NCBI GenBank assembly: GCA_048939995.1
Contig: JBHLOY010000008.1
Coordinates: 1 to 64,000 of the forward strand
DNA length: 64,000 bases
Reading direction: 5' to 3'
From: Promethearchaeota archaeon
Lineage (GTDB): Archaea; Asgardarchaeota; Lokiarchaeia; Sigyniarchaeales; SOKP01
Shown here piece after piece: positions 4,895-28,817 of the stretch; within the stretch, counting starts at the first letter, position 1, and every line of letters starts with the position of its first letter. Below the pieces are notes generated by a model, which had not been told where the DNA came from, did not search any database, and saw only the letters and a program-made list of their open reading frames with translations. The translations under genes and the position numbers were made by a program.

Positions 4895-6733
4895 TCATTC
4901 TCTTGATAACCATTTATCTGTGCTTATAAAACTTTCAGTAATTAGATCTTGAAGATTTGGAAAATTTTTTAATTCTATTGTGTTAAAGTTATGCAAAAAA
5001 TCATTGAATATTTGCCATATAGAAGAAGCGTCCTTCATTTTGCCGGTAAAATAGCCTAGCTTTTGTTTAGCAAAATATGATTGCCCTTTAAATAAGTAAC
5101 AAACTAGAAAGTCCTCAATTGCATTCATAAGAATCGTGTGATGGCCAAATTTTGCTCTGTCTAATCCCTCAGAAAAAACTTCTTTACTAATTGAATCAAA
5201 TGTTGTCAGAAATCCACTAAAAAGTTCATCTGAAAAGTCCCATTCTTGAGAAAAAGCGTGAGAAAATGCTGGAATTCCACCTTCAGTTATAACCAACAGT
5301 AATAGAGGTTGTTCTTCTGTTAATTTCGGCATATCTATTATTCGTTTTTGTATTAGTCTTTTCATTTGATCTTCTATTTGTGCTAATCTTAATCTTTCCA
5401 CAATTGGTGAATTAGTTTTCTTTAAATCCTCCCATAAATCTAATTTCCTTAATAGCTCATCATGTTCAATTGAAATTTTCATTGAATATCGATTAAAGCC
5501 ATACTTTTCAGCTATTGTTTGTGCTTCAGATAAAAGTCGTCGAGCGTCTTTGGTATCAAAGATCAATAGCGCTAATCTTGCTTGTAGTAGTTTTGTCTCA
5601 GTAATTAATGGAAATGAATTATTTTGTTTTGCAATATCTAATAATCGTGAAATATAAGGCTGTATTTCTTTAAGGATTCCAAGATCATTAGTATTACCGA
5701 GATCTATAAGTAATAGATCACACAAATTAAGTAAAGCATCAACATGAGCTTCATATAAAACAATATCTTGTTCTACCGCCTTTCTTAATATTTTTTCTGC
5801 TTTAGAAAGATTACTTGCTCGAGGTTTAGCTTTTAGAAGTAATGCTTTATTTATCTTATAATCTAACTTAATAATCTCATATTCATCATGTTTCTTATCT
5901 TTGAGTTCCTTCATCTTATCCAAGTAGTTTTGTGCCAATTTTAGATCCCCTTTATCTAAAGCAACATGAAAAAGAGAATCAAGAATAATAGGGATTTTTG
6001 AGCTTTCTATTTCTTTACAAAGGATGTAACTTTGATCAATATTTTCATATGCTTCATCAAGTTTTCCTTGCATTCTGTAAATCCAGCCTAAGTTATTAAG
6101 AGCAATGATGACATTTTGGATGTCATTTATTTCTCGTGCAACTGCTAATGCTTGACTACTAGAATTGACTGCCATCTCTAAGTTACCTTTTATACCATAA
6201 TAAGTGCCAGAATTAAGTGTAAATTGCATTAATAACTTTTTATCATCTATTTGTTTAGCTAATTCTAAACCTTGCTCTAAACATTGCTTTATGAGATTTA
6301 ATTCGCCCTTTGCAAAATAAATGCCCCCTTTTATTAAAAATAGAGAAGCGCGCTTTTTCTTTATCTCTATACTAGGTTCATGAAATTGAATTTTAATAAT
6401 CTGTTCGGCTTTATTTATAGTTTTAAGAGCTTCTTCTAAATTACCAAGTCTCCAAAGTATCCATGCAATGAGATTCAAAGCCTCTATTGATTTTTCAAAA
6501 CATTTTTCTTCTTCACTTTGAAGTAGCACTGTTTCTGCTAGTCTTTGTGCTTCTTTTAAGTTTCCAAGATCCATTAATAAAGAACTCTTTAATAGATGAA
6601 TTGAGAATAATTCCTCCTTTGATTGTTCTTTATTCTTTTCCAAATCAATTACAACATCGAGGGCCTCTTGAAATTTGCCAGCACTTTTAAGTTCTTCTAC
6701 ATGCTTTAATTCCTCTAGATCTAGTTCAGGCAT
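4895..6733 (-). CDS. TPR protein with C-terminal longin-like domain (paralog 1)
   Basis: TPR motifs (ALNNLGWIYRMQGKLDEA). C-terminal LLLVITEGGIPAFSH...LFSGFLTTF...EGLDRAKFG...FLVCYLFKGQSY, shared with six paralogs. Confidence 0.8.
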   Translation of the reverse strand: MPELDLEELKHVEELKSAGKFQEALDVVIDLEKNKEQSKEELFSIHLLKSSLLMDLGNLKEAQRLAETVLLQSEEEKCFEKSIEALNLIAWILWRLGNLEEALKTINKAEQIIKIQFHEPSIEIKKKRASLFLIKGGIYFAKGELNLIKQCLEQGLELAKQIDDKKLLMQFTLNSGTYYGIKGNLEMAVNSSSQALAVAREINDIQNVIIALNNLGWIYRMQGKLDEAYENIDQSYILCKEIESSKIPIILDSLFHVALDKGDLKLAQNYLDKMKELKDKKHDEYEIIKLDYKINKALLLKAKPRASNLSKAEKILRKAVEQDIVLYEAHVDALLNLCDLLLIDLGNTNDLGILKEIQPYISRLLDIAKQNNSFPLITETKLLQARLALLIFDTKDARRLLSEAQTIAEKYGFNRYSMKISIEHDELLRKLDLWEDLKKTNSPIVERLRLAQIEDQMKRLIQKRIIDMPKLTEEQPLLLLVITEGGIPAFSHAFSQEWDFSDELFSGFLTTFDSISKEVFSEGLDRAKFGHHTILMNAIEDFLVCYLFKGQSYFAKQKLGYFTGKMKDASSIWQIFNDFLHNFNTIELKNFPNLQDLITESFISTDKWLSRE

Positions 6734-6894
6734 TAGACTCCACTCTGTTTTGTTCTTCTTAGTATGTTTTGCCTAACCTAATATCAAATAGCATTGGATA
6801 TTTTAAAATCAAAGAAAGAGAAGTATTTTTAACTTAAAAGAGTTTTTCTTCTAATCATCCGATTGGATATTAAAATAAAAATTTTAAAAAAAAA

Positions 6895-26321: not shown

Positions 26322-26459
26322 TTAATGATGAGTTTTTGAAATAAAAATCTCTTTTATGAGAGGCTCTAAAGAAGGAATGTCTTCTATTTGAATTTTCCTA
26401 TTGGTTTGATAAAACTTTTCAAAAATATCCCAAATTGCTTTGTTACTTGTACTAATTCC
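26322..26459 (-). pseudogene. 3' stub (45 codons) of a TPR-longin paralog, in frame behind the TGA stop of the TIR gene
   Basis: GISTSNKAIWDIFEKFYQTNRKIQIEDIPSLEPLIKEIFISKTHH* matches paralog C-termini (VWDTFEKFYQVNRKVQITDIPSLEPLIHEIFIEKKLH). Confidence 0.85.
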
Positions 26460-28817
26460 TCATTTAAAAAGCGATTGAGATAGTAGTTCTTTTAATTTTG
26501 GGAAAAATTCTTTTTTAGGCATGAGATATTTCATCACAGCTTGAATATCAGCAATTTCAAATTCTAGTTCGGTTGGTAATCTAGTTTCATTTAAGTAAAC
26601 TGCGAAAAAAGGTTTCTTTTTTTTCAAGGCAAAACTAATCTCTTTTCTCACCATTTCTGAATTAATTATATGGGGTGATATGAATACAAGAAAGGTTTTG
26701 CATCGGTCTAAATTTACTGAAATTGATTTTTTCCAATTTTCACTTACAGGTATTCCCTCATCATACCATATCTTAATTCCCATTTTATTCAAATAGTCAA
26801 TAATAGGATAAACCTCTAACTTATCTAAGTGGGCATAACTAACAAATAGAAAAGGGTCATCGCCTGTATAAGCTTTGAATGGCATTTGAAAATTAGCAGG
26901 ATCAGACATAAAACTTTCAATAATTAGATCTTCAATAGGAGTATTGTTTACTTGAATGACTCTACCTTCATCTTTAGCAGTTTTTAGAAGCTCTAGAAAT
27001 TGAGTCTCTTTATTAATAGCTTCAGAAAAATGCTTCATCTTATGTTGGGCGGTATAGGTTTGCCCTTGGAAGATATAACAGATATAGAAATCATCTATCA
27101 ATTTTATAAGAACTGTATTTTTCCCAAGTTTAACACGATCAAACAATTCAGAAAAGATCTGTTCGCTCAATGACATAAATGAAGATAGGAATTCATTAAA
27201 GTTATTTTCACTTATAGTCATGTCTGAAGTGAAAGGGTTAGATAATATAATAGCCCCTTCAATTGTTATAATCACAAGCAAAATAGGCTTTTCAGCTTTT
27301 ACATCAAGAAGAATTCCAGCGCTTCTTCTTATCATACGTAAAGTTTGATCACTTAAATGAGCTAATTCCAATCGATCTTCGATTGGTGCATTAGATTGTT
27401 TAAATTCTTCCCATAATTCCATTTTTTTGAGAAGATCATCATGCTCACTTGAAATTTTCTTTACTAAGCGATCAAAACCATGTTTTTGAGCAATATATTG
27501 GGCTTTAGTTAACAATTGACGGGCATCTTTAATATTTAAGGTTATTAAGCTGAATTTTGCTTGCAACACATAAGATTCAACATAGTGCCAATAACTCTGA
27601 GATTTTTCAGTTAATATTAATAACTGCTTAATTAAAACTTTTATTTCATTTATAATTTCCATTTCATGAGTTAGTTTAAGCTCATAAAATAGAAGATCAC
27701 ATAAGTGAAGCAATCCTTCGATTTTTATTTCAAAAATTACATTTTCATCTTCGATTAATGATCTTAACAGCTTTTCTGCTTTTACTCGATCCTTGAATCT
27801 TAGACTTTCTTTTAGAATAAGAGCTTTAGTGTACTTATAATCCCGATTAATATAGGGACTCTTTTCAATATCACGTAGTTGTCTAACTCGCTCTGAATAC
27901 TCTTTAGCTTTCTCAATATCACCTTTATCAAGACAAACTTCCACCATACCGACATTATATCCTACCTTTAACCAATTATTCTTAGTTCCTTCTACTAATT
28001 CTATACATTTACCTAATAATTCTGTAGATTTATCTAATTTCCCTTGTGCGCGATATATTAATGCCATGTTATTCATAGTACCTAAATATTTTATAAAGTT
28101 ATTAGTTTTCTCGAAATGTGACAATGCTAATACATAATATGACAAACCAGTTTCTAATTCTCCCTTACTAGAATAAATAAAACCTAAATTAAAATGAGCA
28201 GAAGCTATTAACCTTAGATAATGTATTTCTTCGGCGATTTTGAGGCATTTATTTGTATAATAAAATGCTCTATCAATATCCATTTCTGATATTCTATAAT
28301 AATTTGATAATTCAAGATAAGATTCAGCTATATGCTGCTTATTACCTATGTTTTCACGTAATTCTAAACTCTTTCTTATATATTTTAGAGAATCTTCCTT
28401 TTTGCCGAGAAAAAAAGAAAGGTATCCTGTAATAAATGCTTTATAAGCTTCAAGTTCTTCAAGATTTGCTTGATAATCTTTAGAAAGTATTCTATATAAT
28501 TCTCCACTTTTTTCTAATAATTTTGAACTTCTATCTAAATCACCTATTACAGTCAAAGAATAAGCCAAATTTAAGATAGCATTTATTGATTGAAGATAAT
28601 CTTGTACTTTTTGAGCTTTTTGGTAAGCCTGTTCAGCAATCTTAACAGTTTTTTCCCAGTCCCCCAATCTGATTAGAAGTGAACTTAATATTATTTCATC
28701 TGATAAAGATAAGGTTGGATTTTTTACTAATTTATTTAAAATTGGAATTGCTTCATAATCTCTCCCCTCACTCAAAAGGTTTTCTGCCTTTATTAAATCA
28801 TTATCTATGCTTGACAT
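26460..28817 (-). CDS. TPR + longin-like + TIR domain protein (paralog 7)
   Basis: TPR-longin core, then FVSYAHLD...IWYDEGI...W...I...FLVFISP...SEMVRKEI (TIR_2-type motifs with the conserved Glu). Confidence 0.85.
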   Translation of the reverse strand: MSSIDNDLIKAENLLSEGRDYEAIPILNKLVKNPTLSLSDEIILSSLLIRLGDWEKTVKIAEQAYQKAQKVQDYLQSINAILNLAYSLTVIGDLDRSSKLLEKSGELYRILSKDYQANLEELEAYKAFITGYLSFFLGKKEDSLKYIRKSLELRENIGNKQHIAESYLELSNYYRISEMDIDRAFYYTNKCLKIAEEIHYLRLIASAHFNLGFIYSSKGELETGLSYYVLALSHFEKTNNFIKYLGTMNNMALIYRAQGKLDKSTELLGKCIELVEGTKNNWLKVGYNVGMVEVCLDKGDIEKAKEYSERVRQLRDIEKSPYINRDYKYTKALILKESLRFKDRVKAEKLLRSLIEDENVIFEIKIEGLLHLCDLLFYELKLTHEMEIINEIKVLIKQLLILTEKSQSYWHYVESYVLQAKFSLITLNIKDARQLLTKAQYIAQKHGFDRLVKKISSEHDDLLKKMELWEEFKQSNAPIEDRLELAHLSDQTLRMIRRSAGILLDVKAEKPILLVIITIEGAIILSNPFTSDMTISENNFNEFLSSFMSLSEQIFSELFDRVKLGKNTVLIKLIDDFYICYIFQGQTYTAQHKMKHFSEAINKETQFLELLKTAKDEGRVIQVNNTPIEDLIIESFMSDPANFQMPFKAYTGDDPFLFVSYAHLDKLEVYPIIDYLNKMGIKIWYDEGIPVSENWKKSISVNLDRCKTFLVFISPHIINSEMVRKEISFALKKKKPFFAVYLNETRLPTELEFEIADIQAVMKYLMPKKEFFPKLKELLSQSLFK

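Follow-up and report, generated by a model that had tools for sequence, protein, structure and literature searches.

The locus at positions 4895–28817 is best explained as a signalling cassette that belongs to one Lokiarchaeial family and occurs here in two shuffled copies, together with two related passengers, TL1 and TL7. It lies in a window of 64,000 nucleotides, which is the whole stretch of DNA that was analysed. On balance, we think it probable that longin dimers of the TPR-longin (TL) proteins TL2–TL6 bind a cognate Rab-like GTPase (G1 or G2), that their TPRs give the inputs and that regulators with two winged helix-turn-helix (wHTH) domains and TPRs (W) control a set of small genes. 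The first-pass annotation described one array of seven TPR-longin proteins. Seven co-oriented paralogs of 559–785 aa are indeed present on the minus strand: TL1 (612 aa, 4895..6733), TL2 (705 aa, 8675..10792), TL3 (563 aa, 18714..20405), TL4 (559 aa, 20486..22165), TL5 (654 aa, 22272..24236), TL6 (652 aa, 24296..26254) and TL7 (785 aa, 26460..28817). TL7 is a TPR-neck-longin-TIR fusion of a separate subfamily. Between TL7 and TL6 lies a minus-strand relic (26322..26447) of an eighth paralog that has been lost, namely the final 41 codons of its longin domain, with 71% identity to TL4. The supposed single array is broken up by other genes of the same cassette that were overlooked in that annotation: two for wHTH-TPR proteins and four small ones for exported or membrane proteins. 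The Rab-like GTPases G1 (8021..8596, with a probable ATG at 8575) and G2 (13720..14274, 184 aa) are also on the minus strand and, as had been claimed, are closely related (77% identity). TL2 is directly upstream of G1. The gap of 78 nt reported between them applies to a TTG start; with the likelier ATG it is 99 nt, and the spacer contains a TATA-like element. Since the GTPases have a TATA element of their own, a shared TL-GTPase operon would be hypothetical. The genes that flank the cassette in the window are metabolic, and no defence island is present.

In the TL proteins, a variable TPR part is joined to a constant longin part, as had been proposed. The TPR regions of the seven paralogs have a mean identity of 26–27% and differ in length by whole repeats. 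The conserved part covers about 315 aa, not the 250 aa first estimated, and is made up of a helical neck (about 180 aa, 48% identity) and the domain itself (about 138 aa, 50%); among TL3–TL6 the longin domains are 72–80% identical. The motifs listed in the annotation are present in the paralogs but degenerate in TL1 and TL7, and the domain is C-terminal except in TL7, where a TIR_2 domain follows. Its assignment as a longin, made earlier by eye, was borne out by an AF2 model of the TL3 domain (pLDDT 81.9). The model has a five-stranded sheet in the order beta-beta-alpha-beta-beta-beta-alpha-alpha (strands 13–21, 26–31, 64–67, 70–77 and 80–87; helices 40–58, 90–106, 108–119 and 132–141), and the same order is repeated in the full-length model of TL6. 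The best VIA match was Trs23 (Z 13.2, rmsd 2.4, 123 residues aligned), followed by Fuzzy (12.5) and by BLOC-3 and AP-3 mu (12.4). The best 25 VIA matches were all longins (Z 10.4–13.2, 115–131 aligned). The best roadblocks reached Z 10.4 and lower over about 100 residues, and a roadblock identity is ruled out by topology and alignment length. The best Foldseek match was Mon1-Ccz1. At the sequence level, Pfam Fuz_longin_1 matched 8 of 130 TL members weakly (best E 2.8e-4) but not the window sequence, and a longin profile gave no significant match among PDB sequences. dN/dS, suggested earlier as a check of TPR against longin regions, was below 1 throughout, and no region-wide positive selection was found. 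In the TPR regions of the two closest paralog pairs it was 0.41–0.51; these are region-level NG86 estimates with dS near saturation, and they gave no positive selection on the TPRs.

Both GTPases carry intact G1–G5 motifs (GDGxVGKT, switch-I Thr, DIAGQ, NKVD and SAK), which are invariant or nearly so across 58 clade members, and match Pfam Ras with E-values of 1e-39 to 1e-40. Their C-terminal tails lack the Cys expected for prenylation of a eukaryotic Rab. Judged by eye, the Rab motifs are partial (IGAQF, LIFW, FYKE). In a comparison of scores, the clade profile scored highest on Rab23 (142 bits versus 121 for the next Rab), as did a basal clade member; G2 alone tied Rab21 and Rab23, and two control Asgard GTPases scored highest on Rab11.

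It turned out that 57 of the 66 members of this supported GTPase clade have a TPR-longin gene immediately before them, and a co-oriented TL gene ends within 500 nt upstream of 37 of the 40 GTPases at 72% identity or more. These loci were chosen by the presence of the GTPase and are related to one another. In this genome, all four clade GTPases are within 3.3 kb of a TL gene and of a W gene, whereas none of the 51 other GTPases is within 10 kb of a TL gene. A single-contig relative shows the same tendency (4/8 clade GTPases adjacent to a TL gene versus 0/42 others). The linkage is confined to one Lokiarchaeial family. Forty loci centred on a TL gene, of which 37 come from other families and three from a distant genus within this one, contain no clade GTPase; three of the 40 hold some other small GTPase or a fragment. 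One related genome has 30 longin-domain matches, with no clade GTPase adjoining, and the cassette was not found in the sampled complete genomes of a neighbouring family. The TL-centred metagenome scan yielded five short loci, which were left out. Thus, the conserved linkage expected earlier holds within the family and a pan-Asgard linkage was rejected. Since most TPR-longins have no clade-GTPase neighbour, the protein family either does without a linked GTPase or works with GTPases encoded elsewhere.

The paralogs are not equivalent. TL2 falls with the lineage of G1, its longin being part of a 34-sequence clade that accompanies G1-type GTPases; TL3–TL6 fall with the lineage of G2, and TL1 and TL7 are outside the GTPase-linked clade. 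The proposal of a seven-sensor array feeding one switch is therefore too simple as it stands, because its paralogs belong to different clades and TL7 is a TIR fusion with a Glu in longin helix alpha1 where the other paralogs have a small residue. The divergence of the longin tracks that of the GTPase (r 0.73, versus 0.22 for the neck). Omitting the G1-type cassettes brings the two r values together (longin 0.37, neck 0.36), so most of the mirror signal comes from a single split. We do not regard it as strong proof of pairing; gene conversion between TL 3' ends could also produce it.

We also obtained a weak predicted interaction between TL2 and G1. Two copies of TL2 (residues 389–705) with G1 scored 0.53, and the best of three controls scored 0.00; the runs shared at least 91% of contacts, with partner pLDDT of at least 76, and the result came as scores, with no interface given. 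The mark applied is reached by 58 of 80 solved pairs and by 2 of 110 mismatched pairs. Passing scores of 0.60 or lower were given by only 7 of the 80 solved pairs and by both passing mismatches. It is possible that the predicted complex passes through its likeness to solved longin-Rab complexes.

In the mechanism we propose, TL2–TL6 would dimerise via their longin domains, and the GTPase would dock on the paired alpha1 helices, as in Mon1-Ccz1 and TRAPP. TL2 would pair with G1, and TL3–TL6 with G2. They would then set or read the nucleotide state of the GTPase, a role as GEF being, by analogy, somewhat likelier than one as GAP or effector. At two alpha1 positions, a small residue stands in 129/130 and 127/130 TL sequences, respectively. 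Glycines on this face are required for the GEF activity of Mon1-Ccz1 (PMC5216073). The exchangeable TPR solenoids would bring different inputs, such as bound proteins, peptides or localisation. W would bind a palindrome and control the genes S1–S3 and M4. A bolder version is a complete Ras-style archaeal pathway, in which interchangeable TPR-longin receptor-GEFs load the GTPase, this binds the TPR domain of W and thereby switches the palindrome genes, and a TIR enzyme has replaced the GTPase platform in a sister receptor class. We regard this version as rather unlikely.

W is probably a DNA-binding regulator of the small exported and membrane genes. W1 (11799..13733, plus strand) has two winged-helix domains, a helical middle and C-terminal TPRs; it is divergent from S3 and convergent on G2. 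W2 (16779..18683, plus strand), also a double-wHTH/TPR regulator, is divergent from S1-M4-S2-G2 and convergent on TL3. An Atlas feature search for W gave generic TPR clusters. The small genes are on the minus strand: S3 (11072..11617) with an N-terminal hydrophobic segment (signal or anchor), S2 (14441..15145) with a signal-like N-terminus, M4 (15414..15824), a four-transmembrane protein of 136 aa, and S1 (15937..16566), beta-rich with a signal-like N-terminus. S1–S3 are 181–234 aa long and have long conserved bodies. No convincing family was found for S1–S3 or M4 in Pfam, NCBIfam or PADLOC, and the model behind the Atlas matches for S1 has a pLDDT of 0.43. Each gene has a palindrome, mostly 26 nt behind its TATA box and at the expected transcription start. 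The copies of S3 (11636..11652, ATCATC-N5-GATGAT) and S1 (16611..16627) are exact, that of S2 (15177..15193) has two symmetric mismatches and that upstream of M4 (15854..15870) has one; those of S1, S2 and S3 lie at the 26-nt distance. We consider it a candidate operator. A matrix trained on S1 sites only recovered the palindrome at M4 (21/32), S2 (9/21) and S3 (3/3), and elsewhere at none of 159 TL genes and none of 121 clade GTPases. The palindrome accompanies one W clade (28/31 versus 1/46). A sigma-70 promoter scan was set aside, as the host is an archaeon.

The linkage could also have arisen without any direct TL-GTPase contact. A block around W and the GTPase would then duplicate, with W as partner or effector of the GTPase, and the TLs would be generic scaffolds that ride along, their 3' ends homogenised by recombination. 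TPR-longins are widespread in Asgard archaea without this GTPase (197 of 400 genomes), sister GTPase clades adjoin W with no TL neighbour, and the relic and the mosaic identities among the TLs indicate frequent recombination. W is present in 52 of 76 loci and TL in 65 of 76, a near-equal linkage, and W could be the true GTPase partner. But the gene directly before the GTPase is drawn from several TL sub-branches, although the GTPase has its own promoter. Even non-adjacent TLs match the cassette GTPase in the longin (r 0.63) and not in the neck (0.32). TLs that lack a TIR retain the alpha1 face, whereas it is changed in the TIR fusions, and the TL2-G1 prediction, weak as it is, also speaks for contact. 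We consider this alternative doubtful.

An immune or conflict system, in which TPRs detect foreign proteins and set off either a TIR nucleotide signal or NADase (the TL7 class) or a GTPase/W response with S1–S3 and M4 as exported effectors, seems improbable to us for the locus as a whole. The tandem arrays turn over fast, with 0 to 30 matches per related genome. TIR_2 of TL7 (aa 658–760, E 9e-16) and a ThsB_TIR match are both above the cut-off. Of the 120 best homologs of the C-terminal region of TL7, every one has TIR_2 and retains Glu726, which we take from the TIR family motif to be the catalytic position. Three TIR neighbourhoods were covered, and two TIR arrays elsewhere lie beside genes with a RelA/SpoT domain; a SLATT_4 gene accompanies one of these arrays, a HepT/nucleotidyltransferase pair the other. 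However, TPR dN/dS is below 1, a PADLOC scan within the cassette region gave domain-level matches only for TL7 and none for the small genes or G2, the neighbours in the window are not those of a defence island, and TIR domains also occur in signalling outside immunity. An immune role suits TL7 more than TL2–TL6 and is compatible with the cassette explanation. A still less probable idea is an RRNPP-like extracellular circuit, in which peptides cut from S1–S3 are re-imported and bind the TPRs of W and TL, as Phr binds Rap, and the GTPase would be to TL what Spo0F is to Rap. W has the HTH plus TPR layout and is divergent from exported genes, and among the best matches of the TL6 solenoid are Rap/Phi105 (Z 21.9, rmsd 3.6, 315 aligned), MalT domain III (20.4), NprR (19.2) and AimR (18.5). 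But these Z values are near those of unrelated solenoids (separase 22.9, APPBP2 22.6) and therefore indicate common architecture only. The long bodies of S1–S3 are unlike short propeptides, and no importer recurs across the loci.

Turning to known systems, the cassette resembles the longin-dimer Rab GEFs, namely Mon1-Ccz1 (Rab7/Ypt7), Fuzzy-Inturned (Rab23), HPS1-HPS4/BLOC-3 and TRAPP Bet5-Trs23, in its fold, the small alpha1 residues, the weak Fuz_longin_1 matches and the Rab23-like scores of the partner. It differs in that a single longin, not three as in tri-longin GEFs, stands behind an all-helical TPR solenoid of 420–570 aa in many interchangeable paralogs, and in that the presumably unprenylated GTPase is encoded beside a transcription regulator; GEF activity of the TLs is putative. 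Longins also act without GTPases, as in SNAREs and adaptins. In Myxococcus, the gene of the small GTPase MglA is beside that of MglB, a regulator of the longin/roadblock superfamily, and the TPR effector SgmX takes part. The cassette shares this arrangement, but its domain is a longin, its GTPase is Rab-like rather than MglA-like, and TPR and longin are fused. RRNPP regulators (Rap, NprR, PlcR, AimR) and the MalT sensor domain are similar in the layout of W and the shape of the TL solenoid; in contrast to them, W carries a pair of winged-helix domains and a long middle region, TL has a longin as its output, and no short cognate propeptide was identified among ORFs of at least 45 aa. TL7 is similar to prokaryotic TIR effectors (Thoeris ThsB, TPR-sensor TIR proteins), except that its TIR stands behind a TPR-longin and that the cassette region shows no gene for a ThsA-like protein or a STAND NTPase.

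Asgard genomes encode dozens of Rab-like GTPases and longins. In MK-D1, the GTPase genes are generally not in operons with longins and matching them is difficult; an Asgard longin structure could not be solved in the same work (Tran et al. 2024, PMC10933270). As far as the main text of Liu et al. (bioRxiv 10.1101/2020.10.19.343400) goes, an Asgard roadblock - Rab-like GTPase - DENN operon and NPRL2-like longin fusions offer a parallel, since there too a Rab-like GTPase neighbours a candidate GEF and longins are fused to signalling domains; our cassette has no DENN or roadblock, and neither it nor the TPR-longin fusion is named in that text, though they may be among the unnamed asCOGs. Searches on Asgard terms, with most subscription journals outside their coverage, gave no description of the family or cassette, and a search on TIR defence gave nothing. 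Since the cassette is limited to one Lokiarchaeial family and unseen in the neighbouring one, it says little directly about the eukaryotic ancestor. It does name predicted-soluble pairs, TL2 with G1 and TL3–TL6 with G2 as presumed cognate pairs and TL7 as a predicted non-binder, with which one can ask directly whether Rab-like GTPases were under longin control before eukaryotes arose. The palindrome genes are its candidate transcriptional output, with a defined candidate operator.

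The window opens contig C38 in a genome of 3.75 Mb, and the homologs and neighbouring records carry the names Promethearchaeota or other Asgard. We confirmed the seven minus-strand paralogs of the first-pass annotation and numbered them TL1–TL7 from left to right (TL, TPR-longin gene). Its contrast between variable TPR and constant longin also held. The mean pairwise identity of TL1–TL7 is 26–27% in the TPR region, rising to 48% in the helical neck (about 180 aa) and to 50% in the longin (last 138 aa). In the closest two pairs, dN/dS is 0.41–0.51 in the middle of the TPR region versus 0.12–0.16 in the longin; the TPR region evolves faster, yet under purifying selection. 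TL3–TL6 are mosaic, with TL3 and TL5 sharing 21% of the N-terminus, 49% of the neck and 76% of the last domain. At 26322–26447 lies a 41-codon remnant, the 3' end of a further paralog. The whole genome holds 12 full paralogs. Beyond the window there are five, one with a TIR domain, and one more copy without the longin (C38:134476–139082; C1:7547–9598; C37:27830–29764; C17:352324–354240; C28:403038–404468).

Modelling bore out the longin assignment, which had been made by eye. The AF2 model of the C-terminal domain (130 sequences, pLDDT 81.9) has the strand and helix order of a longin. Its best structural match was Trs23 (Z 13.2, rmsd 2.4, 123 aligned), in a tie within about 1 Z with Fuzzy (Z 12.5) and with BLOC-3 and AP-3 mu (Z 12.4); roadblocks gave Z ≤10.4 over shorter alignments. 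Foldseek ranked Mon1–Ccz1 at the top. Judged by its predicted structure, the domain is a longin. Because Pfam gives only weak Fuz_longin_1 matches on the family, databases label these proteins as plain TPR.

To describe the linkage between TL genes and the Rab-like GTPases of the window, G1 (8021–8596) and G2 (13720–14274), we used 76 loci centred on G2 relatives. All 122 TL and all 113 GTPase genes share one strand. These loci are kin chosen by their GTPase, and the counts are not independent events. A TL gene ends ≤500 nt upstream, mostly 60–150 nt, in 37/40 GTPases of ≥72% identity and in only 8/34 at 60–68%. G1 and G2 belong to a clade of 66 GTPases (support 1.00), of which 57 stand directly behind a TL gene, four are at contig edges and five have a small exported-looking (S2) or four-helix membrane (M4) protein gene inserted. 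Clade GTPases have a TATA-like element of their own, whichever gene precedes them. In this genome, the four GTPases of ≥64% identity are all ≤3.3 kb from both a TL gene and a gene for a double winged-helix/TPR protein (W), and as a control, none of the other 51 is ≤10 kb from a TL gene. In a single-contig relative, TL genes adjoin 4/8 clade GTPases versus 0/42 others. The longin domain is present in 197/400 genomes of the phylum. The 40 TL loci from other lineages contained no clade GTPase, and in one genome (G061) none of 30 longin matches had one alongside. W turned up only in this family and in one sister-family genome. The TL–GTPase link is lineage-bound: the expected linkage to this clade stands among relatives but not across Asgard.

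Several further arrangements were seen. The C1 and C37 paralogs likewise adjoin a clade GTPase and a W of 822–823 aa. A wider-clade GTPase is fused behind CDC48_N and CDC48_2 (L127:6384–8291, +; 635 aa with two Ras stretches). Fusion of a related longin to a carbon-nitrogen hydrolase domain was seen at L128:8831–11437 (+) and P0166, and the L128 gene stands directly behind a 64%-identical GTPase. Eight TPR-longin genes of 729–742 aa stand in tandem in G017 (C3:20000–54000), with two more nearby; neither a small GTPase nor W was detected in that fetched region. We found no paper on the TPR-longin family or its gene cassette in the literature library searched. For MK-D1, Tran et al. (PMC10933270) note that GTPase genes are generally not in operons with longins.

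W, a double winged-helix protein with C-terminal TPRs, is the commonest other neighbour (52/76 loci), followed by M4 and the exported-looking S1–S3. In the layout that recurs, W is oriented divergently from S/M4; TL genes come next and the GTPase after them, frequently with a second, convergent W. Two shuffled copies of this cassette lie in the window. A palindrome, ATCATC-N5-GATGAT, stands upstream of all four S/M4 genes of the window. Its total at ≤2 mismatches is only 12 versus 6 expected, and therefore the evidence is placement, not count. A matrix trained exclusively on S1 sites of other genomes recovered sites at M4 (21/32), S2 (9/21) and S3 (3/3), and at 0/159 TL genes and 0/192 GTPases. 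The window sites ranked 1, 2, 6 and 7 genome-wide, and no site preceded S/M4 homologs outside the cassette in this genome. The palindrome starts 25–26 nt past the TATA box in 38/47 cases and overlaps the expected transcription start, a placement typical of archaeal repressors. It goes with one W clade (28/31 versus 1/46 other W) that has a common TLSRH helix and to which W1 and W2 of the window belong. We infer that the palindrome is bound by W.

The idea of one switch was not borne out as proposed. TL2–TL6 group in a supported clade of 97, almost always within a GTPase cassette, although the sampling is biased; TL1 and TL7 are outside it. In the longin-only tree, TL2 belongs to a clade of 34 (support 1.00) in which every member that could be assigned precedes a G1-type GTPase, and TL3–TL6 to a separate clade of 16, mostly preceding G2-type GTPases. 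G1 and G2 have intact GTPase motifs G1–G5, including the switch-II Gln, and, unlike eukaryotic Rabs, their sequences lack a prenylation site; they are not true Rabs. Their GTPase clade scored best on Rab23, whereas two control Asgard GTPases scored best on Rab11; for G2 alone, Rab21 and Rab23 tied. The Rab23 GEF is the longin pair Fuzzy–Inturned, and the likeness is therefore a lead, not an orthology claim.

In Mon1–Ccz1 and TRAPP, the GTPase is bound by helix α1 of both longins, and Gly-to-bulky changes on this surface abolish exchange (PMC5216073). Two α1 positions of the TL longin carry small residues in 129/130 and 127/130 sequences and may be equivalent to the Mon1/Ccz1 glycines. TIR fusions carry Glu or Asp at the second position in 107/120 cases. 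Complex prediction for two copies of TL2(389–705) with G1 scored 0.53 versus 0.00 for the best control, in a range (passes at ≤0.60) that holds only 7/80 solved pairs and both mismatched pairs that passed; the mark was reached by 58/80 solved and 2/110 mismatched pairs. Contact agreement was ≥91% and partner pLDDT ≥76, and no interface was returned. This weakly supports a predicted contact of a TL2 longin dimer with G1, as the proposed GTPase regulation would involve; the score may reflect resemblance to solved longin–Rab complexes.

We lean towards a reading in which the linked-clade TPR-longins, as dimers, directly regulate the co-encoded GTPases or serve as their direct effectors; the cassette would also include a transcription regulator and a small regulon of its own. 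These TPR-longins would work like a longin-dimer GTPase platform but are not members of the tri-longin GEFs. Longin distances track GTPase distances (r 0.73 where TL and GTPase are adjacent and 0.63 where a median of 2.8 kb separates them) more closely than neck distances do (r 0.22 and 0.32, respectively). Within one cassette versus between cassettes, identity is 73% versus 58% in the longin and 61% versus 58% in the neck. The covariation depends mostly on the G1 split and could stem from gene conversion, and so it is moderate evidence. Linkage without contact between the proteins, which such conversion would suit and the small α1 residues would not, seems to us rather doubtful.

TL7 continues past the longin into a C-terminal TIR_2 domain. 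All of the best 120 homologs of this region have TIR_2 and the catalytic-position Glu, and they form arrays, some beside the cassette. TL7 most plausibly represents a related receptor with a TIR output instead of a GTPase. Two genomes have three TPR-longin-TIR genes in an array followed by a RelA/SpoT-domain gene (L152:10001–20405; L153:3977–14441). An immune or conflict system, a reading that suits TL7 better than TL2–TL6, is improbable. In the full-length TL6 model (pLDDT 87.3), an unbroken helical solenoid reaches residue 503 and is joined to the longin by a flexible linker. The solenoid resembles Rap and NprR, as an RRNPP-like peptide circuit would have it, but about equally MalT domain III, LGN, APPBP2 and separase, so that no specific ligand is indicated. 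Such a circuit is highly improbable. Repeat-number change and mosaicism would be compatible with exchangeable TPR input modules, and likewise indicate no ligand.

Between G1 and TL1 lie two small ORFs (7061–7667, −), one of at least 62 aa (7479–7667) and one for a 145-aa CxxC protein (7061–7498), which are also found next to clade GTPases in L029, L058 and L068. G1-type cassettes are often just upstream of a conserved block (L054, L057, L061, L063, L074, L080, L086 and others), by eye an MglA-like GTPase, an arrestin-like gene, a HAD hydrolase and a Rag-like GTPase; in this genome the block is on contig C26. The locus is flanked at 64–4189 by a TSP3-like repeat fragment and a membrane-anchored S8 subtilase of 1170 aa, and S8 proteases are also near TL genes in L090, L120, L121 and L136. 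On the other side (28851–35975, −), genes for Fe-ADH, thiolase, two acyl-CoA dehydrogenases and ETF (the last by eye) share the orientation of TL7, just 33 nt upstream of it. The thiolase gene borders the cassette in several relatives, too.
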